DNA of 64,000 nucleotides. Origin: Nitrospirota bacterium (GTDB taxonomy: Bacteria > Nitrospirota > UBA9217). The stretch spans positions 321,781 through 385,780 of the forward strand of contig CAVPKD010000006.1 of NCBI GenBank assembly GCA_963705595.1, read 5' to 3'. A program made the translations under genes and the position numbers. Shown here piece by piece: positions 24,767-40,156 of the stretch. Below the pieces are notes generated by a model. That model was not told the DNA's origin. It was given only the letters and a program-made list of their open reading frames with translations, and did no database searches. How positions within the stretch are numbered: the first letter of the stretch is position 1; each line of letters begins with the position of its first letter.

Positions 24767-26113
24767 TTATTCTACTCCGAGTTCTTTCAGTCTTTTCCAC
24801 AGAGTGACCCTGCTGATGCCGAGATGTTTTGCCGTAAGGGTCCGGTTTCCTTTGTGCAGGGTCAGCGCCGAGCGCAGCTTTTCCCGGTCCATAATCTGTC
24901 CATTCCCTTCTGCCTTTTTCTCCTCGAAGACATATTCAGGCAGGTCTGTGACTTCGACGGTGTCTCCTTTGCAAGTGATAGCGCTATGCTCCAGGGTGTT
25001 GATCAACTGTCTAACGTTTCCTGGCCACCGGTAGTTTTCGATGATATCCAATGCTTCAGGGCTTATTCTCCGGATATCCTTATTGTTAATATGGGAGATC
25101 TTCTTCAAATAGTGGAACGTGATGGCGGGGATATCTTCAGCCCGGTCCCGCAGAGGCGGAACCCTGATTAAAATGGAGTTAATGCGGTACAGGAGGTCTT
25201 CCCGGAAGATGTCCGAATTGACGAGGGCGTTCAGGTCCTTATTCGTGGCGGAGATCAGCCGGATGTTGACGGAGATCGGATTGTGATCTCCCACGCGTTC
25301 CACCACTTTTTCTTCGATGACCCGTAGTAGTTTCACCTGCATGACCTTTGGCATGTCGCCAATCTCATCGAGGAAGATACTGCCGTTATGAGCAGCCTCG
25401 AACCTGCCCATCCGGTCGCTCATGGCGCCTGTGAAGGAGCCTTTCTTGTGACCGAAGAGCTCACTCTCGAGAAGATAATCGTTGAGCGACCCGCAGTTCA
25501 TCGCGACGAACGGGCCCTCTTTGCGCCTGCTGAGGGTGTGGATGGCCTGGGCCACGAGGTTCTTGCCGGTACCGCTTTCGCCGCAGATAAGCACAGGCGC
25601 TTCACTCACGGAAGCGTTCCGGATCTGCTCGAACAGAGTCTGCATAGGGGCGCTCTTCCCGAGCAGACCCTTGAACCAGTATTCCTGCCGCAGTTCCTGC
25701 TTCAACTCTTCGAGCTCCATCTCCTTCATATACAGCGATGTGATATCCGTCATAGACTCTACGGCACCGATCATTTCGCCGTTCTCGTCCTTAAGGACCG
25801 TAGCGTTCTTTAAGAGATAGACGGCCCTCCCATCGCTGGACCTTATGCGGCATTTCTTGTTTTCGATCGCGCCCATCTTGAATATGCCGCAGTCTTTTTT
25901 CCTCCCCTCGTCGGTTAAGAAGACACAGGTGTCGCTGTCGAGGATCGTGCACTGTTGCCCAATGACATCTTCTTTGCGATATCCGGTAATATTTTCCGCA
26001 GCTCGGTTGAAGAAGAGAATATTCCCGTCTTTATCGACGATCATGAGTCCGTCTCGCATGGTTTCGAAAACGTTCATAAGAAAGTGAGGTTCTTTGCATA
26101 ATTTTTCAATCAT
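24767..26113 (-). CDS. Sigma54-dependent transcriptional activator (PAS - AAA+ - Fis HTH, no receiver domain)
   Basis: GESGTGKN Walker A, GSFTGA (GAFTGA variant), FLDEIGDM, RWPGNVRQL, C-terminal LGISRVTLWKRLKELG; the PAS domain carries 4 Cys. Confidence 0.9.
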   Translation of the reverse strand: MIEKLCKEPHFLMNVFETMRDGLMIVDKDGNILFFNRAAENITGYRKEDVIGQQCTILDSDTCVFLTDEGRKKDCGIFKMGAIENKKCRIRSSDGRAVYLLKNATVLKDENGEMIGAVESMTDITSLYMKEMELEELKQELRQEYWFKGLLGKSAPMQTLFEQIRNASVSEAPVLICGESGTGKNLVAQAIHTLSRRKEGPFVAMNCGSLNDYLLESELFGHKKGSFTGAMSDRMGRFEAAHNGSIFLDEIGDMPKVMQVKLLRVIEEKVVERVGDHNPISVNIRLISATNKDLNALVNSDIFREDLLYRINSILIRVPPLRDRAEDIPAITFHYLKKISHINNKDIRRISPEALDIIENYRWPGNVRQLINTLEHSAITCKGDTVEVTDLPEYVFEEKKAEGNGQIMDREKLRSALTLHKGNRTLTAKHLGISRVTLWKRLKELGVE

Positions 26114-26280: not shown

Positions 26281-26296
26281 AGGCATGATACTTGCT
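26281..26296 (+). promoter_or_regulatory. Sigma54 promoter (-24 GG / -12 GC) for the USP-USP-USP-YeeE operon
   Basis: AGGCATGATACTTGCT versus TGGCACG-N4-TTGCW; GG at 26282-83, TTGC at 26292-95, exact spacing; about 50 nt upstream of ATG 26348. Confidence 0.65.
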
Positions 26297-26347
26297 ATAA
26301 TTAACGTGTATTAGGAACATATAAAATGTTTGCAGGAGGAATGATGC

Positions 26348-26932
26348 ATGAAAAAGATCCTGATAGCAGTAGATGATACAAAGGGATCAAAGAACGTACT
26401 ATCGGTCTTTCATAATTTTGTCCAGAAGCCGGCTGAGGTGGTTCTTCTTCACGTAGAAAGGCTGCAGGGCCGGTCTCTGATGATTGACATGCTTGGCGAC
26501 GCGGAAATGTCGACCCTGAAGGAAATGATGAACGGCACTGATCATAAAGCCACGTTGGACAAGAGGGCGGAGCAGATCCTGGCATTTTACTCGAAAGAGC
26601 TGGTACAGGACGGTCTGGGAACGCTCAAGACCGTGAGAAGGGATGGCGTTCCTTCTGAAGAAATCCTCAGGGTGGCTGGGGAAGAAGGCGCCGATATGAT
26701 CATTCTCGGCCAGAGCGGTAAAAGAGGGTTCGACAGGTTCATTACAGGAAAAGTCGCCCAATACGTAGAAGCCAATGCGAAGGTGCCGGTGCTGGTGGCA
26801 AAAAGACCGCTTATGTGTGAAGAACCGTTTACCAAAAGGGATGCCTGGGCCGCTGTTTCCGTTACTACGGCAATCATGCTCGCACTGTTCATTCTGGGCG
26901 TCATTCTCCAAAGAGGGATGATTATTCACTAG
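26348..26932 (+). CDS. Universal stress protein (UspA family) with a C-terminal TM anchor
   Basis: MKKILIAVDDTKGSKNVL...GADMIILGQSGKRGFDRFITGKVAQYV...VPVLV, then AAVSVTTAIMLALFILGVIL. Confidence 0.85.
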   Translation: MKKILIAVDDTKGSKNVLSVFHNFVQKPAEVVLLHVERLQGRSLMIDMLGDAEMSTLKEMMNGTDHKATLDKRAEQILAFYSKELVQDGLGTLKTVRRDGVPSEEILRVAGEEGADMIILGQSGKRGFDRFITGKVAQYVEANAKVPVLVAKRPLMCEEPFTKRDAWAAVSVTTAIMLALFILGVILQRGMIIH

Positions 26933-27030
26933 CGTTAATTATTAATTAGCAGATGCCATATGTAACCACGGAGTTGAAGCCAGGTAACTTTAGGAACAAA
27001 CAAGATAACAAAAAATAATGAGGAGGAAAT

Positions 27031-27549
27031 ATGAAGAAGGTATTGATCGCTGTAGATGAAACAGAAGGTTCAAAAGCCGTATTGTCGGTGTTCCGTAATA
27101 TGGTACGTCCGCCGGAAAGCGTGGTGCTGGTCCATGTGCAGCAGCTCGAGGGCAAGTCCCTCATGATCGACATGCTTGGGGACGCAGAGCTGAACACGCT
27201 CCGGGAGTCCCTGAAGGGCACACCGTATAAAGAGGCATTGGACCGGAAGTCGGAAAAGATCCTGAACTATTATCGGAAGGAAATTGAGAATGGCGGCTTG
27301 GTCAGCGTGAAGACCGTGGTCAGGGATGGAATCACCTCTGAGGAGATATTGAAGGTCGCCCAGGAAGAAGGTGTTGACCTTATTGTTACGGGGTACAATG
27401 GGAAGACCTTCATGCAGAGGCTTGTCACCGGCTCTATCAGCAAAGATATGGAGAAGAATGCACCGGTGCCCGTCCTCGTTGCGAAGGACCCCACGGAAGA
27501 AGAGAAGTATGCCTGGACCGCGGCCATGAGATTGAAGGCAAGCAATTAA
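27031..27549 (+). CDS. Universal stress protein, paralog 2
   Basis: MKKVLIAVDETEGSKAVL..., collinear with the gene at 26348; GAGGAGG RBS. Confidence 0.85.
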   Translation: MKKVLIAVDETEGSKAVLSVFRNMVRPPESVVLVHVQQLEGKSLMIDMLGDAELNTLRESLKGTPYKEALDRKSEKILNYYRKEIENGGLVSVKTVVRDGITSEEILKVAQEEGVDLIVTGYNGKTFMQRLVTGSISKDMEKNAPVPVLVAKDPTEEEKYAWTAAMRLKASN

Positions 27550-27596
27550 GCAGTCTGCTGAAAACGTCCAGAAAACACGGTGAACGTAATTTTGAG

Positions 27597-27642
27597 CGAA
27601 GCGAAGGACCTCGGTTTTTCATAGAGGCGGTCCTTCGCTTCG
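27597..27642 (+). repeat. Intercistronic 14-bp perfect hairpin (CGAAGCGAAGGACC / GGTCCTTCGCTTCG)
   Basis: 27597-27610 pairs with 27629-27642; lies between USP2 and USP3. Confidence 0.6.
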
Positions 27643-27748
27643 TTTGTGTGGTGCGAAAAATAATTTATCAGATCCTGCGAGGGTTTCAGTGCCCTGGAGA
27701 ACGGGGCTTGAAATATCAGGGGTTAATAATACCATACAGGAGGGGGAT

Positions 27749-28264
27749 ATGAGGAAGGTGCTAATGGCGGTAGACGAGACAGCAGGTTCAAAATCCGTAC
27801 TGTTCGTCTACAAAACCATGGTCCGGGAACCGGAAAGCGTGATCCTAGTCCATGTGCAGCGGCTTGAGGGAAAGTCGATGATGATCGATATGCTCAGTGA
27901 GTCGGAGTTGAAGACCCTGAAGGAGTCGATACAGGGCACGGAGCACAAAGAGGAGCTTGACCGGAAGTCAGAAAAGATCATGAGCTTCTACAAGAAGGAA
28001 CTTGGGAACGGCAGTTCGGTCAAGGTGAAGGCCCTCATAAAGGAAGGTATCCCCTCGGTGGAGATCCTGAAGGTCGCCCGGGAAGAGAAGGTCGATCTTA
28101 TCATCATGGGCTGCAACGGCAAGACCTGGCCCCAGCGGCTCGTTACCGGATGCGTCACCAAAGAAGTGGAACGAGCTGCAACAGTGCCCGTACTTGTCGC
28201 AAAGACGGCCGGGCGTGAAAAATCTATTGAGCACGGCTGGAGGGAAGCTTATGCTGCACAGTAG
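27749..28264 (+). CDS. Universal stress protein, paralog 3
   Basis: MRKVLMAVDETAGSKSVL...; AGGAGGGGG RBS at 27738-46; the track start at 27644 is unlikely. Confidence 0.85.
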   Translation: MRKVLMAVDETAGSKSVLFVYKTMVREPESVILVHVQRLEGKSMMIDMLSESELKTLKESIQGTEHKEELDRKSEKIMSFYKKELGNGSSVKVKALIKEGIPSVEILKVAREEKVDLIIMGCNGKTWPQRLVTGCVTKEVERAATVPVLVAKTAGREKSIEHGWREAYAAQ

Positions 28265-29350
28265 CGTTATTTCTTTTGGGACCGCGATCTTGGCCGGTCT
28301 CGCGCTTGGTTACATTCTGCAGAAAGGCCGTTTCTGTCTGAACTCGGCGTTCCGGGACATCATCTTCATAAAGGACCTTACGCTCTTCCGGTCATATCTG
28401 CTGGCGCTCGTTGTGGCGATCATCGGATCCAATCTGATGGAAGATTTGGGGCTCCTTCAGGTGATTAATGCCGATACCGGCGCCCTGGAGGCAACATCGC
28501 TCATGCGCCAGAGCTTTGTACCTGTTGCGAACGTCCTCGGCGGCTTTCTGTTCGGTCTCGGGATCGTTCTTGCCGGCGGGTGCGCGAGCGGTATCGTGTA
28601 CCGTATCGGCGAGGGCCAGCTGTCCGCCATGGTCGCGATCCTCGGCTTTTTCTTCGGCGCCGTGATGACCGCCGACGGGCTGCTGAGCCCGGTGAATAAT
28701 TTTCTCAAGGGCTTCCGTGTTGAGATCAACGGGTCAGCGAGCCCTGCTATCTGGGACATCTTCGGCGGAGGACCGGTGGTGAAATGGATCACCATTGCGA
28801 TTTTTGCTGTCGGAGTGTTAAGCTTTGTTATCGCCGGTAAGCCGGAGTTCAAGTCCAAATCAAAGGGCTTTGCATGGGGCACCACCGGTCTTCTGATCGG
28901 CGGTCTTGACTATTGCCTCGTGGTGGGTGTCATCCTATTTCGGCGGTGCTCCGCGCGGCATGGCCATCAGCGGGCCGGTCAGAGAATTCTTCTACGTTCT
29001 TCTTACCAAGAGCACGCACTCAAGCTTTCCTGAGTTCAGCTTCCTGGGTATCTTCCGCGGATCATGGGGCATGTTCTTCATCCTTTCCGTGCCCTTCGGG
29101 GCATGGCTCAGTGCCCTCTGCACTCAAGGAATTCAGGTGGAAGATCCCCCCGGCAGCGGAGTTCCTTACGGTGTTCTTCGGAAGCATCCTGATGGGAATC
29201 GGCGCGGTCATCGCCGGCGGCTGCAACATCGGCCACGGCCTTACCGGCATGTCCGCGATGGCCGTTTCCAGCCTCGTGGCTATCACCGCCATCATCCTCG
29301 GCAACTGGACGATGGTCTACTTCAAGCTGATCAGACCCATGCAGGATTAA
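28251..29350 (+). pseudogene. YeeE/YedE-family sulfur-compound (thiosulfate-type) permease; two +1 disruptions (about 28905 and 29125)
   Basis: QKGRFCLNSAF, LAGGCASGIVYRIGEG and IAGGCNIGHGLTG motifs spread over frames 0, 1 and 2; the start overlaps the USP3 stop by 14 nt. Confidence 0.8.
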
Positions 29351-29368: not shown

Positions 29369-29408
29369 AAGGACGGCCCCGGCAGTTTTGCGGAGCCGTC
29401 CTTTTTTT
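29369..29408 (+). terminator. Rho-independent terminator after the YeeE gene
   Basis: AAGGACGGC...GCCGTCCTT stem followed by T7 (29401-29407). Confidence 0.7.
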
Positions 29409-29952
29409 GACCGTGCTTCCCTAACTCCTCCTTGCTGGATTGGCAACGTCCCCGTTCTTCACTTGATTATTCTAGAGAACTTCGCCGCTTATTTCGATTG
29501 AATCCAGCTATCTTTTCTGAAAAACCCAGTCATCGATGCTGGTTGATTCCGCTACTGGTGGAGAGACATTGGTTGAGACCGATAAGAAATGAAAACAGTA
29601 CACTTCCACTGTAAATCCTTTATCAAAGAATAATGAATCAGATTCTATGGTCAATGAAAATGGCGCAAAAGAAGAGGTGAGAGATGACGTTCATAGGTGC
29701 CCTTGGGGATCCTATGGCGTCTTAACTTCCTAAAACCATTTTGATAAAATGAAGGGGGGACTAAGGATAATGAAGTTGTTTACGATCCTTAATGTTTTTC
29801 TTAGAATAACAATTCCTCTATTTTTCTTTACCAATGCTTGTCCAAATGCGGGTATCCCTGTAGAATTCTGCACGTTTTTGTCTTGATAATTTCCTTTTCG
29901 GGTGTTATCCTTTTCTATACTCTAAAAGCAATGTGCTGCCAGGTCTACAAAC

Positions 29953-31299
29953 ATGCTGGATAGATTATTAAAAGACCCTCAATTTTTGCCTGAAGTGTTC
30001 GAGACCATGAGGGACGGCCTTATGGTGGTAGATAACAAAGGCCGTATCCTCTTATTCAACCGTGCGGCTGAAGAAATAACCGGGTATCGAAAAGACGAGG
30101 TTATCGGCAAAGAATGTACTATTTTCCAATGTGATACCTGTGTGGTCATAAGCGAATCAGAGGGACGGAGGGACCGTCAACTAGAAAAATTCGGTTCCAT
30201 TTACAATAAGAGATGTCGGATACGGTCGGGGGACGGGAGGTCTGTGCTTCTGCTAAAGAATGCCGTTGTTATACGGGACGACAATGGAGAAATACTCGGT
30301 ACGGTCGAGTCGATGACGGACATTACATCACTCTACAACAAGGAAATGGAACTGCAGGGGCTCAAGGAGGATTTGAGACAGGACTACTGGTTCATGGGGT
30401 TACTGGGGAAGAGCATACCCATGCAGAGATTGTACGAGCACATTCGGAATGCCGCCGTAAGCGAAGCCCCTGTCCTGATAATCGGAGAAAGCGGCTCCGG
30501 CAAAAACCTCGTCGCCCACGCCATACATAAACTCGGTAGACGCAGGGACGGACCATTCATCCAGATGAACTGCGCGTCGCTGAACGAACAGCTACTTGAA
30601 AGCGAGCTCTTCGGCCACAAGAAAGGTTCCTTCACCGGCGCGGTAAGCGACCGCATCGGAAGGTTCGAGGCCGCTCATGACGGTGGGATCTTCCTCGACG
30701 AGATCGGAGATATGCCGATGACGATGCAGGTAAAACTCCTCAGGGTCCTTGAAGAAAAAGTCGTGGAGCGCGTGGGAGACCACAAGCCGATCCCCGTGAA
30801 CATCAGGCTCATTTCAGCCACGAACAAGGACCTCAGCAGCCTGATCCACGCAGGCAAATTCAGGGAAGATCTCCTTTACCGGATAAATTCCATTGTCATC
30901 AACGTCCCTCCGTTACGGGAGCGAAAAGAAGACATCCCGCTTATCGCACTCCACTACCTCAGAAAGATTTCCTCGGTAAATAACAAAGAGATCCGGAGCA
31001 TCAGCCCTTCTGCGATGGAGATTTTAATAGACTTCCCCTGGCCGGGCAATGTGCGGCGGCTCATCAATGCCCTTGAACACAGCGCTGCCACCTGTAAAAG
31101 CGATACCATTGAGGTCTCGGATCTGCCGGACTATCTCGTCTACGAAAAAAAGACAGAGATAAACGAAAATCGTATCGACATCGAGGAGATCCGTTCGACC
31201 CTTTCTTTGTATAAAGGCAATAGAACCCTTGCGGCGAAGCACCTCGGGATCAGCAGGGTCACTCTCTGGAAAAGACTGAAGGCAATCGGCATCGACTAA
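29953..31299 (+). CDS. Sigma54-dependent activator, paralog of 24767-26113 (same 448-aa PAS - AAA+ - HTH layout)
   Basis: Collinear: FETMRDGLMVVD, EVIGKECTIF, GESGSGKN, GSFTGA, PWPGNVRRL, LGISRVTLWKRLKAIG. Confidence 0.9.
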   Translation: MLDRLLKDPQFLPEVFETMRDGLMVVDNKGRILLFNRAAEEITGYRKDEVIGKECTIFQCDTCVVISESEGRRDRQLEKFGSIYNKRCRIRSGDGRSVLLLKNAVVIRDDNGEILGTVESMTDITSLYNKEMELQGLKEDLRQDYWFMGLLGKSIPMQRLYEHIRNAAVSEAPVLIIGESGSGKNLVAHAIHKLGRRRDGPFIQMNCASLNEQLLESELFGHKKGSFTGAVSDRIGRFEAAHDGGIFLDEIGDMPMTMQVKLLRVLEEKVVERVGDHKPIPVNIRLISATNKDLSSLIHAGKFREDLLYRINSIVINVPPLRERKEDIPLIALHYLRKISSVNNKEIRSISPSAMEILIDFPWPGNVRRLINALEHSAATCKSDTIEVSDLPDYLVYEKKTEINENRIDIEEIRSTLSLYKGNRTLAAKHLGISRVTLWKRLKAIGID

Positions 31300-31317: not shown

Positions 31318-32965
31318 ATGAAAAGGTATATCGTTATCATAGCAGTCCTTGCGATCATCATTTCGGCTCTCATGATCCTAAGTGTTTTTTTTCAGCGGAC
31401 GCTCCAGATGGAGACGGCCGAACAGTTCAACAGGCAGCAACTGCTCCTTGCCAATGCAGAGGCATCGAACATTCAGACCTATCTAAGTAGCGTAAAAGAG
31501 GAAATGCTCCATATCGCTCAATCCGTGTCACTGCTCCAGATCCGCAAAGAGACGGATTGCAGGTTGCTTACCAACGCGATTTTTAAGGACAACGATAATG
31601 TCAAGAAACGGATAGAATTCCTCGATCGTAACGGGGAAATATTTTTCAGCCGAGGGAACGTGCATGCAGAAGGACCCGATGAAAAAAAGATCGTCAGCGG
31701 GGCAAGAAGGTTGTGTCCCGGCGATGTGCAGATAGAACAGGATACGAAGAGGATTTCCATCGTCGCTCCGATGTGTCGTTATGACTCCCTCATCGGTGCG
31801 GTGGTGATTACCCTTGATATCCAGGACATCGCGATGACCTTCCTCAGCCCCATAAAATCCGGCTTCACGAGGGTATGCATGGATGATGGATGAAAAAGGG
31901 AACCTTCTGTACCATCCAACCCAGCCCAACATGGTCGGCAGGAATTTATACAAGACCGACTCTTCCTGCTTCAAATGTCATAAAACCTTTGACGTGGAAA
32001 AGAAGATCATTGAAGGGAGAGGCGACTATTACGGAAGATACGTTGCACCGACCGGGGAAGACAAGATCCTGGCCTTCTCCACCATAGCGGTCGGGAATGC
32101 ACGGTGGATCGTGGCGGTATCGGCCCCCTATTCCGAGGTCACCATGTCGATCAAGAGGTCCATGAACCTCTATGCGTGGATCATTATCGTGATCTTTATG
32201 ACGACCAGCGGTGTTGCCGCAATGCTGCTTGTTTTAAACCGGAAACAGGAACAAGCCGAAGAGCGGGCAAAACATGAGAAGGAACTCGAGATGATGCACT
32301 CCGAAAAGCTTGCATCCCTCGAACGGTTGACCTCGGGCATAACCTCCGAAATAGGAAATCCCTTAACATCGGTTTTCTCTTTTATCGACGTATTAATGGA
32401 TATGGAGGATGATGAGTTTAAAAAGGAGACGCTCGAGACCATCTTCTTCCATATGAACAGGATCGCGGACATCCTGAAACAGCTTTCCAGTTTTTCGAAG
32501 ATGCCGCCTATGGAGCTCAAACCCTGCAAGGTGAACAGCCTTATCGAGGAGTCCCTTTCTCTCATCCAGTACGACCAGAGGGTACAGGACATCACCGTCG
32601 TGAGGGACCTCTGGCCCGATATGCCGGCGATCACCACGGACGGGAACCAGCTCTCCCAGGTCATCGTGAACATCGTATTGAACGCAGCGGATGCAATGCC
32701 GAGCGGGGGGACACTCACAATACGAAGCAGGGTAGAGAATAACAGTATCGTGATCGATTTTGAGGATACGGGAGTTGGCATTGACAAAGAGAATCTCAGC
32801 AGGATATTCGACCCATTTTACACCACGAAAGAGCATGGTACGGGTCTGGGCCTCGCGGTGAGCTATAGCATCATTAAGAAACTCAACGGAAGCCTTACGG
32901 TAGAAAGCGATCTCAACAAGGGCTCCAGATTTATGATAACCCTTCCGATGAAAGGAACGGGATGA
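31318..32965 (+). pseudogene. Membrane sensor histidine-kinase-like protein (periplasmic Cache-like domain with CXXCH; HATPase); one +1 disruption near 31860
   Basis: TM helix, then RGYAWMMDEKGNLLYHP and SSCFKCHK, a second TM helix, a DHp-like helix LTSGITSEIGNPL, then N, G1, F and G2 boxes (NAADAM, DTGVGI, FDPFYTTK, GTGLGL). Confidence 0.8.
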
Positions 32966-37999: not shown

Positions 38000-38096
38000 G
38001 ATTTCTCCGTTATCAGGGATGGTCTTGAAACGACCAGTTCTGCGAATGTTTATGCGTCGTTATGAGAGCAGTTCCCGGTGTTGAGCTATCCGGGCA

Positions 38097-38407
38097 CTAT
38101 TTATATCCGCCTGCTGCCGGCGCCCCGTACCCGCCTGACTTGGGAGCCGGTGCCCCATACCCGCCTGACTTGGGAGCCGGTGCCCCGTACCCGCCTGCTG
38201 CCGGTGCTGTACCGTATCCGCCCGGATGCGGGAGCCGGTGCTGAACCGTAGCCGCCGATGCATGACGCGGAACGCCGAGCCATATCCGCCTGCGGCGCCC
38301 TGGCCCGGCGCGGCTTTCGCTATCATATCATGCTGCTGGCTGTACACCACCAGGAAACCGAGAATGCACACCACGATCGCAATGAGAATTACCAGCGGTG
38401 CTTTCAT
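38097..38407 (-). pseudogene. Small membrane-anchored Gly/Tyr-rich repeat protein (about 7 GGYG motifs); two +1 disruptions
   Basis: MKAPLVILIAIVVCILGFLVV anchor, then GGYGSA / GGYGSAPAPAS / GGYGTAPAA / GGYGAPAPKS x2 / GGYGAPAA / GGYK* recovered across three frames. Confidence 0.5.
38104..38300. repeat. Degenerate tandem repeat encoding the GGYG units; the core is two 30-bp copies
   Basis: 38122-38151 and 38152-38181 differ at one base (GCCCCGTACCCGCCTGACTTGGGAGCCGGT); flanked by diverged copies. Confidence 0.75.
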
Positions 38408-38442
38408 AAGATCCTCCCTTAGATATGGTTTGAAGCAACTGC

Positions 38443-38694
38443 TTAGCCCTTTTTGATTTTAAAGACGATCTTGCCGCCTTCGTTCTTCTTCTCCATCAGG
38501 TCATGTCCGGCCTGATCGAGCATCTGGACGATCGTTTCCGCCGACGAGGGGTTGTCGAAGGTCATCTCGAGGACCTCGCCCTCTCCGATCTTCTCCAGCG
38601 ATTTCTTGCAGTAGATCTGGGGATGGGGGCACACATAGCCGCACACATCGAGCATATAGACACCGTCACCTTTTTTTTCAAATTTCATTGCCAT
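38443..38694 (-). CDS. TusA/SirA-family sulfurtransferase
   Basis: 83 aa; LDVCGYVCPHPQI (CPxP active-site motif); directly downstream of a YeeE gene. Confidence 0.85.
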   Translation of the reverse strand: MAMKFEKKGDGVYMLDVCGYVCPHPQIYCKKSLEKIGEGEVLEMTFDNPSSAETIVQMLDQAGHDLMEKKNEGGKIVFKIKKG

Positions 38695-38725
38695 GACAAA
38701 TATCCTCCTTATATTCGATAGTTAT

Positions 38726-40156
38726 TTATGGGTAGGTTAAAAATCCGCCATTTCCTGCCGCCATCTTTCTCTCCGACCACCAGTTGAAGAACTTGACACC
38801 GGCAAAGGCGCCGGTCACCATGCCGATGCCGTACAGCCATCCGCTCGGATCGCCACCTGCAACGCGGATGAAGAACGCGCCGATGTTGCAGCCGAGCGCG
38901 GGACGCGAGCCCAGTCCCATCAAGGTCCCGCCCAGCAGACCCCACACGATCAGTTCGCCCTTCGGCAGCTTGAACTTGAACTCCTTGCTCATGAGCGACA
39001 TGATCATGGCGCCGAAGATGATGCCGAAGGACATCCAGAGCGCCGGGTTGCGCCAGGGCACGGGGAGCCCGTTATTGACGCCGAAGAACACGTTGTCATG
39101 CATGTTCCATCCGAGCTTGTCGAGGACCCACCCGCCGAACTGTCCTTCCTGGCTGGTGATATACCAGTAGCCCGGGTCAAAGACCGTGCCCCGGATGCTC
39201 GTGTCAGCGGCATGCCCCATCTTGGTGAGGAGCTCTCCGAAATTCGAGATGCCGAACTTGATCTGCATGCCCTTCATGACGAAGATGTGGATGCCCGCGG
39301 TGATGCCGATGATGACCCCCATAATAGAGGTCCGCTTGGACGCCGTCAGCATGCTCCAGATCCCGGCAAACTCGTCGGAGAAGCTTGTCGGCTTGCCCGT
39401 CTGTTTTGCGCGCTTCTTGAGGAAGCCTTTCCGGATGTAGAACGCATAGATGACGACGATCAGCACGAGGGCAGGTATGATCGCGCTGATGAGCGCGTCT
39501 GCGACGAAGAATTTTGATGCGCCCGGGAGGGCATTTGAGAAGGCTTGGGTGTGTGAAAGCTGGATAGAGGGCTGGTCCCAGACGTAGCCGGAAAGGTAGT
39601 AGTCGAACCAGGACCTGACCTTGTCGGCGGGAAGATGCTTCGCTGCGGAAGACGCCTTCCAGGAATCCGGGACCAGTTTCAGGAAGGGCCCGCCGATGTC
39701 AACAAAGATCGCCTGGCCGAAGGATATCCCGAGGATGGAAAGTATCGAGGTGCCGTTGCCTTCGCCGATCTTGTACAGGGACCCCGATGCGCACCCTCCG
39801 GCAAGGACCATCCCCACGCCGAAGATCATCCCCGATATCAGCGTGTGGACGCCGAACGGGGCCGGATGGAAGGTGCTCATGTTGGTTGCTGCGAGCGTTG
39901 CCTGGATGACGCTGAAAAAGATGAGCGCGATCAGGATGCCGACGGCCATTCTCGGAACACCGGCGGCAAACAGATCTCGCGATGCCGAAGCGAAGCAGAA
40001 CCTGCCGTACTGAAGCATCATGCCGTAAGCGATTCCGAACCAGATGTATGCTACCAGGTACATGTAATATACATTTGCCTTGTAATAGAGCAGGCTCACC
40101 AGAATCATCAAGCCTGTTACTACGAAGGCCCAGATCTGATTTTTTTTCTCTTCCAT
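38726..40156 (-). CDS. YeeE/YedE-family sulfur-compound permease (intact, 476 aa)
   Basis: YGRFCFASASRD, LAGGCASGSLYKIGEGNG, ALGCNIGAFF; polytopic. Confidence 0.85.
   Translation of the reverse strand: MEEKKNQIWAFVVTGLMILVSLLYYKANVYYMYLVAYIWFGIAYGMMLQYGRFCFASASRDLFAAGVPRMAVGILIALIFFSVIQATLAATNMSTFHPAPFGVHTLISGMIFGVGMVLAGGCASGSLYKIGEGNGTSILSILGISFGQAIFVDIGGPFLKLVPDSWKASSAAKHLPADKVRSWFDYYLSGYVWDQPSIQLSHTQAFSNALPGASKFFVADALISAIIPALVLIVVIYAFYIRKGFLKKRAKQTGKPTSFSDEFAGIWSMLTASKRTSIMGVIIGITAGIHIFVMKGMQIKFGISNFGELLTKMGHAADTSIRGTVFDPGYWYITSQEGQFGGWVLDKLGWNMHDNVFFGVNNGLPVPWRNPALWMSFGIIFGAMIMSLMSKEFKFKLPKGELIVWGLLGGTLMGLGSRPALGCNIGAFFIRVAGGDPSGWLYGIGMVTGAFAGVKFFNWWSERKMAAGNGGFLTYP

Follow-up and report, generated by a model that had tools for sequence, protein, structure and literature searches.

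In the NifL-NifA system of Azotobacter vinelandii and Klebsiella, the histidine-kinase homologue NifL shows no phosphorylation activity and binds through its DH and GHKL domains to the AAA+ domain of the activator NifA, which has no receiver domain (PMC12998190). DivL of Caulobacter, with Tyr at the acceptor position, is a second protein with a HisKA/HATPase fold in which the acceptor His is replaced. Heme c in an extracytoplasmic Cache domain is described for the sCache_heme family (DUF3365/Tll0287, PF11845; GSU0582 and GSU0935), which has been presented as the first case of a covalent cofactor in a Cache domain and proposed as a redox or nitric oxide (NO) sensor, with no dCache form described (Deshpande et al. 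2026 preprint, PMC12889525). We analyzed a 64,000-nucleotide stretch of a Nitrospirota genome (GenBank assembly GCA_963705595.1, contig CAVPKD010000006.1, positions 321,781 to 385,780; hereafter the window), which holds a forward-strand gene at 31318..32965 for a predicted heme-c dCache/DHp/GHKL sensor (548 aa if intact, lying in two frames in the window). Its operon partner, act2 (29953..31299, forward strand), is a receiver-less activator with a Cys-rich PAS domain, a sigma54 AAA+ domain and a Fis-type helix-turn-helix (HTH). We propose, with a probability of about 0.5, that the sensor is NifL/NifA-like, acts without phosphotransfer, and controls the activator of a nearby operon of universal stress protein (USP) genes and a YeeE-type transporter. 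A literature search on His-less kinases paired with sigma54 activators returned only the NifL and DivL papers.

A sequence-only reading of the gene had suggested that Ser takes the place of the phospho-acceptor His, and alignment to solved kinases bore this out. The H-box segment of the window protein reads LTSGITSEIGNPL, and in phmmer alignments that are gapless through the H-box, the Ser (TCC, 32345..32347, forward strand) falls on the phospho-His of four kinases, namely KinB 3D36 (LAASISHEIRNPL), ZraS 9JFJ (LAAGVAHEIRNPL), CckA 5IDJ and ThkA 3A0R. There is no His at the acceptor site, and the protein departs in this from HisKA kinases, which carry the phospho-accepting His in helix 1 of DHp (H-E-x-x-N/T-P-L). 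We then examined 120 homologues, 55-92% identical to the sensor, from a search of a collection of 5.8 billion proteins. These come mainly from Nitrospirota and Thermodesulfovibrionales metagenomes, and nearly all are intact, typically with 548 aa. Short-form homologues (<600 aa; n = 98 clusters at 90% identity) have Ser in 93 clusters, Thr in two, Asn in two and Ala in one, and none has His. Long-form homologues (≥600 aa), which carry an extra cytoplasmic PAS domain, have His in 14, Tyr in four, Ser in three and Gln in one. Among the orthologues at the surveyed loci, the Ser is encoded by all four of TCA, TCC, TCG and TCT; this synonymous turnover and the clade-wide conservation rule out a private mutation or pseudogene as the source of Ser. 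The first replacements of His are almost all one nucleotide away from CAY, and Ser (TCN) is reachable via Tyr, which is found at the acceptor position in some relatives of the sensor (locus L013 and four clusters).

The partner of the sensor likewise differs from that of a HisKA kinase, as it has PAS in place of REC, the receiver domain of a cognate response regulator. Pfam matches in act2 are PAS_9, Sigma54_activat (229 bits) and HTH_8, with no match to Response_reg, and an act2 orthologue lies directly upstream of the sensor gene, on the same strand and with a gap of 0-94 nt, in all 23 related loci for which the flank is present. None of the 88 REC matches of the genome falls in the 64-kb window, the nearest downstream match being ∼52 kb away, and a REC hidden Markov model found no receiver within 6 kb on either side in 23/24 related loci that lie behind a REC-less activator. 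The earlier statements that the gene follows a receiver-less activator and that no response regulator is nearby therefore hold.

We surveyed one genome per species, which gave 75 loci, and typed the 68 full-length copies along with the two copies of this genome by the neighboring sigma54 activator. All 42 copies with a downstream NtrC-type REC-sigma54 regulator retain the acceptor His. Among the 25 copies behind an upstream REC-less PAS-sigma54 activator, 19 have another residue at this position (Ser in eight, Gln in four, Asn in three, and Thr, Asp, Tyr and Arg in one each), and six have His. The paralogue in this genome (C1:52225-54510) bears His and belongs to the REC-sigma54 group, with its regulator at C1:50848-52224. 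In a maximum likelihood tree computed with the acceptor column left out, the 25 copies form one nested clade that makes up 6.07 of the 20.3 units of tree length, and all changes between His and non-His (at least five), as well as all eight changes of residue state, fall within it. Repeated loss of His is confined to the lineage with a REC-less operon partner. Because some members of this clade keep His, the switch of partner came before the loss of His. The closest His-bearing sister, just outside the His-losing clade in the tree, is L019 (JAJYIF010000018.1), where a heme-dCache histidine kinase with His and its REC-sigma54 response regulator adjoin a divergent PAS-sigma54 gene and an operon of four USP genes and YeeE, plausibly an intermediate, ancestral-looking layout. 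The suggestion that the sensor is either a pseudokinase or part of a non-canonical relay is supported by the clade-wide Ser and by the link between His loss and the REC-less partner in 23 of 24 related loci, and the variety of residues that replace His across the wider clade, seven or more, argues for a pseudokinase over a Ser-based phosphorelay.

Comparison of the ATP-binding motifs showed that the N (NIVLNAADAM), G1 (DTGVG), F (FDPFYTTK) and G2 (GTGLGL) boxes of the window protein are all intact, as had been read from the sequence, within a GHKL domain (32639..32953, forward strand) that scores 92 bits against HATPase_c. In this the protein agrees with HisKA kinases. The boxes are also intact at loci L001, L002, L005, L006 and L010. 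At L007, the N-box Asn is changed to Arg and the F and G2 boxes are lost; G2 is degenerate at L003 and L004, and the N-box Asn is Tyr at L035. Averaged over the clade, identity is 0.69 in DHp and 0.66 in the catalytic and ATP-binding domain, and the face of helix 1 (EIGNPLTSVFSF) is conserved with or without the acceptor His. These patterns suggest that the kinase-like core is under constraint, with the fold and docking surface selected and catalysis not. Since the ATP boxes are eroded in some His-less lineages, catalysis would be dispensable while the fold is kept.

The sensor gene consists of open reading frames (ORFs) at 31318-31893 (frame 1) and 31883-32965 (frame 2), which the ORF listing and three-frame translation join into one protein with the order first transmembrane segment (TM1), periplasmic double-Cache domain, second transmembrane segment (TM2), DHp and GHKL ATPase. 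TM1 (IVIIAVLAIIISALMILSVFF, residues 5-25, 31330..31392, forward strand) is preceded by MKRY, in keeping with the positive-inside rule, and TM2 (LYAWIIIVIFMTTSGVAAMLLVL) spans residues ∼284-306 (32168..32236, forward strand), both as read directly from the translation. As these two hydrophobic segments have positive charges on their cytoplasmic sides, the ∼258-residue Cache domain between them (31393..32167, forward strand) is predicted to be periplasmic. A helical linker of ∼20 residues connects TM2 to the DHp hairpin (32318..32503, forward strand; Pfam HisKA 29.6 bits, residues 154-215 of window:31859-32962). Between TM2 and DHp, where long-form relatives have PAS, the window sensor has neither HAMP nor PAS. 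In the intact orthologue at L001, Pfam scores are 68 bits for dCache_1, 31.9 bits for HisKA and 95.8 bits for HATPase_c.

The Cache domain carries a c-type heme attachment motif, CXXCH (C-F-K-C-H, 31967..31981, forward strand), within a short helix in the Cache module nearest the membrane. It lies within the SSCFKCHK already noticed in the sequence-only reading, and its position between TM1 and TM2 agrees with the extracytoplasmic placement given there. The motif is invariant in 120/120 database homologues and 68/68 locus copies, a conservation that sets it far from a chance occurrence; no orthologue without it turned up. The genome has matches to the cytochrome-c assembly family PF01578 at four places, all over cut-off. 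An extracytoplasmic CXXCH and cytochrome-c maturation genes, the sequence features of a c-type hemoprotein, are thus both present, and the sensor probably binds heme covalently outside the cell. The earlier proposal of a hemylated Cache sensor gains from the invariance of the motif, the assembly genes and the periplasmic topology, with the refinement that the Cache domain is double and that the site lies in its proximal module.

We used an AlphaFold2 model of the periplasmic domain of L001 (pLDDT 85.3, pTM 0.84) to assign the fold. The model shows a long N-terminal helix, a membrane-distal and a membrane-proximal module of five strands each, and CXXCH on a helix of the proximal module (190-194). 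The top 50 Foldseek matches in the PDB, including PctA, TlpA, Tlp1 and mmHK1S, are all dCache ligand-binding domains (TM-score 0.55-0.74). Pfam dCache_1 (PF02743) matches the intact orthologue at 68-72 bits against a cut-off of 45 and at 71.8 bits covers 3-240/240; in the window it is found as two halves of 28 and 25.5 bits, which score low because the gene is split. With a score above the gathering threshold and a modeled two-module Cache fold, the domain is assigned to dCache_1 and not to the published sCache_heme (PF11845). Membership of sCache_heme was ruled out, as PF11845 has no match in the sensor even at E ≤ 10, a search of the PDB with the sensor profile did not find 5B82, 3B42 or 3B47, and the model has two modules. 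The two families share an extracytoplasmic Cache domain, CXXCH on a short inserted helix and fusions to signaling outputs; unlike the single Cache module of sCache_heme, however, the window sensor has the two modules of dCache_1, with the heme site membrane-proximal.

Identity within the clade is 0.77 for the proximal Cache module compared to 0.43 for the distal one. A wider search with the sensor profile against 1.84 billion representatives at 50% identity gave 870 matches at E ≤ 1e-10, and CXXCH is at the same place in 139 of the best 150 of these. In ten sampled members of this wide family, dCache_1 is joined to a HisKA or HisKA_3 kinase or to a PAS-GAF-HD-GYP output. Proteins P0139-P0270 carry the CXXCH-bearing dCache_1 on many outputs and reach lengths of up to 1600 aa. 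Conservation points to the Met of QPNMVG (31931..31933, forward strand) as a candidate distal axial ligand of the heme, for it is invariant in the 68 sensors and present in 93% of 124 distant CXXCH-bearing representatives. The His of LLYHP is conserved in the close family only and not across the 124 distant members, and heme ligation would thus be of the His/Met type. Three residues before this Met there is Gln in the present clade and His in 83% of the distant CXXCH members. A literature search on heme-c dCache domains brought up the sCache_heme preprints only, and no paper describing such a domain. The heme-c dCache family, which is common in anaerobic sediment bacteria, is therefore apparently unrecognized and would be a second cofactor-bearing Cache family.

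We envisage the protein as a transmembrane sensor of redox state or of a small ligand, whose cytoplasmic histidine-kinase fold would no longer carry out phosphotransfer. The DHp/GHKL core would receive the state of the heme by way of TM2 and a short coiled coil, and would control the co-transcribed act2 by direct, conformation-dependent binding, as NifL controls NifA. Bound ADP or ATP may modulate the binding. In turn, act2 would drive the sigma54-dependent USP-USP-USP-YeeE operon for stress and sulfur uptake. We infer the heme attachment and its ligands, the contact between sensor and activator, the sign of the regulation and the signal sensed. Candidate signals are the redox state of the periplasm and ligands of the heme, sulfide or NO for example.

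The likeness to NifL-NifA extends to several features, including a DHp and GHKL sensor predicted to act without phosphotransfer, a partner bacterial enhancer-binding protein with a sensory domain in the place of REC, co-transcription of both genes, a redox cofactor in the sensor, and retained nucleotide binding (PMC12998190). A histidine-kinase-like protein lacking the phosphotransfer site and a REC-less enhancer-binding protein are thus encoded in one operon in both cases. However, NifL is cytoplasmic and senses through a flavin adenine dinucleotide (FAD)-binding PAS domain, whereas the window sensor is a transmembrane protein with a predicted periplasmic heme-c dCache domain, and the gene order is reversed, the activator coming first in the window. 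The architecture dCache-TM-DHp-GHKL speaks against common descent with NifL (FAD-PAS1, PAS2, DH, GHKL). In the tree, the clade falls within a HisKA family of the ordinary kind whose members pair with REC regulators, so the resemblance to NifL is convergent, a functional analogy only.

DivL is similar to the window sensor in its replaced acceptor, and its output proceeds via protein-protein contacts, as proposed here; DivL 4Q20 is also among the sequence matches. Unlike the window sensor, with its REC-less sigma54 partner and periplasmic heme-domain input, DivL is a polar cytoplasmic protein that reads DivK~P and controls CckA. The cytoplasmic core is most similar in NCBIfam and the PDB to kinases of the ZraS/AtoS type, which work with NtrC-type regulators (AtoS 219 bits, ZraS 173 bits, ZraS 9JFJ E = 8e-31; all far below equivalog cut-offs). 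The ancestral paralogues of the sensor also pair with REC-sigma54 regulators, but the window sensor has neither the acceptor His nor the REC partner of the ZraS/AtoS type.

A number of points weigh against control of act2 by a sensor devoid of phosphotransfer. The operon linkage of the two genes is circumstantial as evidence for contact, and act2 has a Cys-rich PAS sensor of its own and may not need a membrane protein. The six clade members that keep His might phosphorylate an unlinked regulator. Ser or Thr is present in 97% of the short-form clade, so that the hydroxyl itself could matter, and the protein still carries E and N from the phosphatase motif of HisKA (S-E-I-G-N), a finding that would fit activity towards some REC protein. 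Heme attachment is a prediction from the motif, and the window's own copy of the sensor gene is frameshifted. A NifL-like pseudokinase linked to USP/YeeE is nevertheless preferred to the alternatives discussed below because of how the replacements are distributed, because ATP sites are eroded and because the operon partner is strictly kept.

The first of these alternatives, which we regard as unlikely, is that the protein modulates a canonical pathway, either as a phosphatase or sink for a REC-sigma54 regulator or as a heterodimer with a His-bearing heme-sensor paralogue. A paralogue of this kind with a REC partner is present in this genome (C1:52225-54510), a Ser form and a His paralogue occur together in at least five other genomes (L001/L069, L003/L065, L004/L070, L005/L058 and L006/L059), and the phosphatase residues of SEIGN are conserved along with the REC-docking face of helix 1. 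There is also a precedent in the pseudokinase DivL, which regulates another kinase (PMC4211667). However, the paralogue in this genome sits on a distant branch, with 36-44% identity, and the kinase of a canonical pair can already serve as its phosphatase. The REC-less activator, moreover, is the strict operon partner at 23/23 loci with an upstream flank.

Somewhat less probable still is a switch based on Ser phosphorylation, in which the GHKL domain would phosphorylate Ser343 or the activator and a stable phospho-Ser would set the output. Histidine-kinase-like proteins that act on Ser, such as SpoIIAB/RsbW, BCKDK/PDK and the plant subfamily-2 ethylene receptors, serve as models. The prevalence of Ser or Thr (95/98 short-form clusters), with all four TCN codons in use, would fit a switch of this type, as would the fact that the window protein, L001, L002, L005, L006 and L010 have all four ATP boxes (N, G1, F and G2) intact and keep the Glu that follows the acceptor. 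In contrast, sister sub-clades with the same partner have Asn, Gln, Asp or Arg, which are not phosphorylatable, or Tyr, and Ala and Asn occur within the short form as well. In addition, L003, L004 and L007 keep Ser or Thr despite degenerate G2 and N boxes.

The two-frame layout of the gene was analyzed separately. Homologues read SPIKSG-(S/L)RGYAWMMDE where the window reads SPIKSGFT|RGYAW, so that the window carries a single surplus base, GGCT[T]CACG, at 31864..31866 (forward strand), a +1 frameshift. A single frameshift had been suspected near 31860, and comparison to intact homologues places it slightly downstream. In four of four independent metagenomes (X1, X2, X3 and X5), every contig over the site, from related strains ∼97-98% identical to the window, is one base shorter at 31863-31867. 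These contigs have the natural alleles GGC-TTA-CGA and GGC-TCA-CGA, and the TTCA of the window resembles both of them run together. Frame changes also affect six of 40 kinase genes in this assembly and point to assembly errors, and we consider it likely that the frameshift in the sensor gene is an assembly artifact. Since the split is most likely such an error, the organism probably carries an intact copy of the sensor. A programmed frameshift was ruled out, given that all relatives encode a single ORF, that the site has the look of merged alleles, and that 6/40 kinase genes are frame-switched. Marker completeness, only 78% for the 10-contig assembly, likewise points to assembly errors.

A gene in decay, with the loss of His, the frameshift and the eroded boxes marking a pseudogene on its way out, is consistent with the frameshifted window copy and the degenerate boxes of some relatives, but is very improbable. 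Intact 548-aa orthologues fall into ∼100 distinct 90% clusters from many environments, identity across the clade is 77% in the proximal sensor module and 66-69% in the core, the conserved Ser shows synonymous turnover, and the extra base is missing from every relative examined; the frame-switched kinase genes again point to assembly errors. Least probable of all is a canonical kinase that uses the His of MMHSEK, 18 residues upstream, which the sequence-only reading had named as the alternative acceptor: this His is present in 112/120 homologues but is Gln, Arg, Tyr or Asn in the other eight, it occurs equally in His-bearing paralogues (LHSEK in C1) and thus belongs to the linker helix in general, and there is no REC partner for it in the window or within 6 kb on either side at 23/24 loci, so that it was ruled out as a replacement acceptor.

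Taken jointly, a heme-c dCache family, as a second and independent recruitment of CXXCH into the Cache fold, and a series leading from canonical kinase to NifL-like transmembrane pseudokinase with control by contact only, form a proposal that we put forward tentatively. The series would represent a dated, replicated natural experiment on two-component systems abandoning phosphate. Its order would be readable from the sequences: the partner loses or replaces its receiver, the acceptor His drifts by single-step codon changes, and the ATP site decays, with fold and docking face conserved all along. If true, the NifL principle would also apply to a receptor in the membrane with its input from the periplasm. 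In sulfur-cycling Nitrospirota, such a system could link redox or sulfur chemistry in the periplasm with the USP/YeeE genes for stress and sulfur uptake.

The probable target operon, identified by pattern match and ORFs, comprises three USP genes and a YeeE/YedE-type sulfur transporter (26281..29350, forward strand). A sigma54-type -24/-12-like element, AGGCATGATACTTGCT, was found by pattern match ahead of USP1 (26281-26296, forward strand). A relaxed sigma54 pattern has 29 matches across the window compared to 28.3 expected, which is the level of chance, and the site at 26281 is the only match in the window with a meaningful position. The scan found no sigma54 promoter ahead of act2, where the 550 bp spacer (29409-29952) is without a recognizable element. 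USP genes are divergent beside the act2-sensor pair in 15 of the 23 related loci listed, in 13 of them together with YeeE, and we infer that act2 drives the USP-USP-USP-YeeE operon. Right after YeeE, a terminator-like hairpin (GGACGGC...GCCGTCC) is followed by TTTTTTT (29371-29408). Because of this hairpin and T-run, the USP-YeeE operon appears to terminate before act2 and the sensor gene, which would form their own transcription unit.

A second PAS-sigma54 activator, act1 (24767-26113, reverse strand), is 70% identical to act2 and takes the position divergent to USP-YeeE both in the window and in L001. Both activators have 448 aa, and their HTH recognition helices are identical, so the two possibly form mixed hexamers on the same enhancer. 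Their PAS domains share a mostly conserved Cys cluster (C-x4-C-x2-C ... C), which in act2 consists of C55, C60, C63 and C88; C60 is Ser in act1. The cluster suggests a cytoplasmic input by thiol, metal or iron-sulfur chemistry, and both activators probably sense something themselves.

Further frame changes were seen in the assembly. As a further sign of assembly errors, the metagenome contigs that cover the frameshift show about six one-base gaps over 12.9 kb of the region, two of them within the YeeE gene. This gene (28194-29350) lies in three reading frames, and contig X5, 98% identical, has two one-base gaps there; an assembly indel error, as in the sensor gene, is the probable cause. Five other histidine-kinase genes have colinear matches that switch frame (C10:14530-15334, C10:33780-34548, C4:114640-115312, C7:48289-48946 and C8:45425-45794), which calls for caution with any pseudogene call in this genome (G000). 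At L007 (CAVOVE010000018.1, 4295-7647), the ORF of act2 overlaps that of the sensor in another frame; this is a long-read metagenome-assembled genome, and an indel error may contribute. Finally, the segment at 38084-38758 of the window shows dense one-base differences, mostly omitted bases, to contigs of two or three metagenomes, with joints that skip 63-120 bases, and is either hypervariable or badly assembled.

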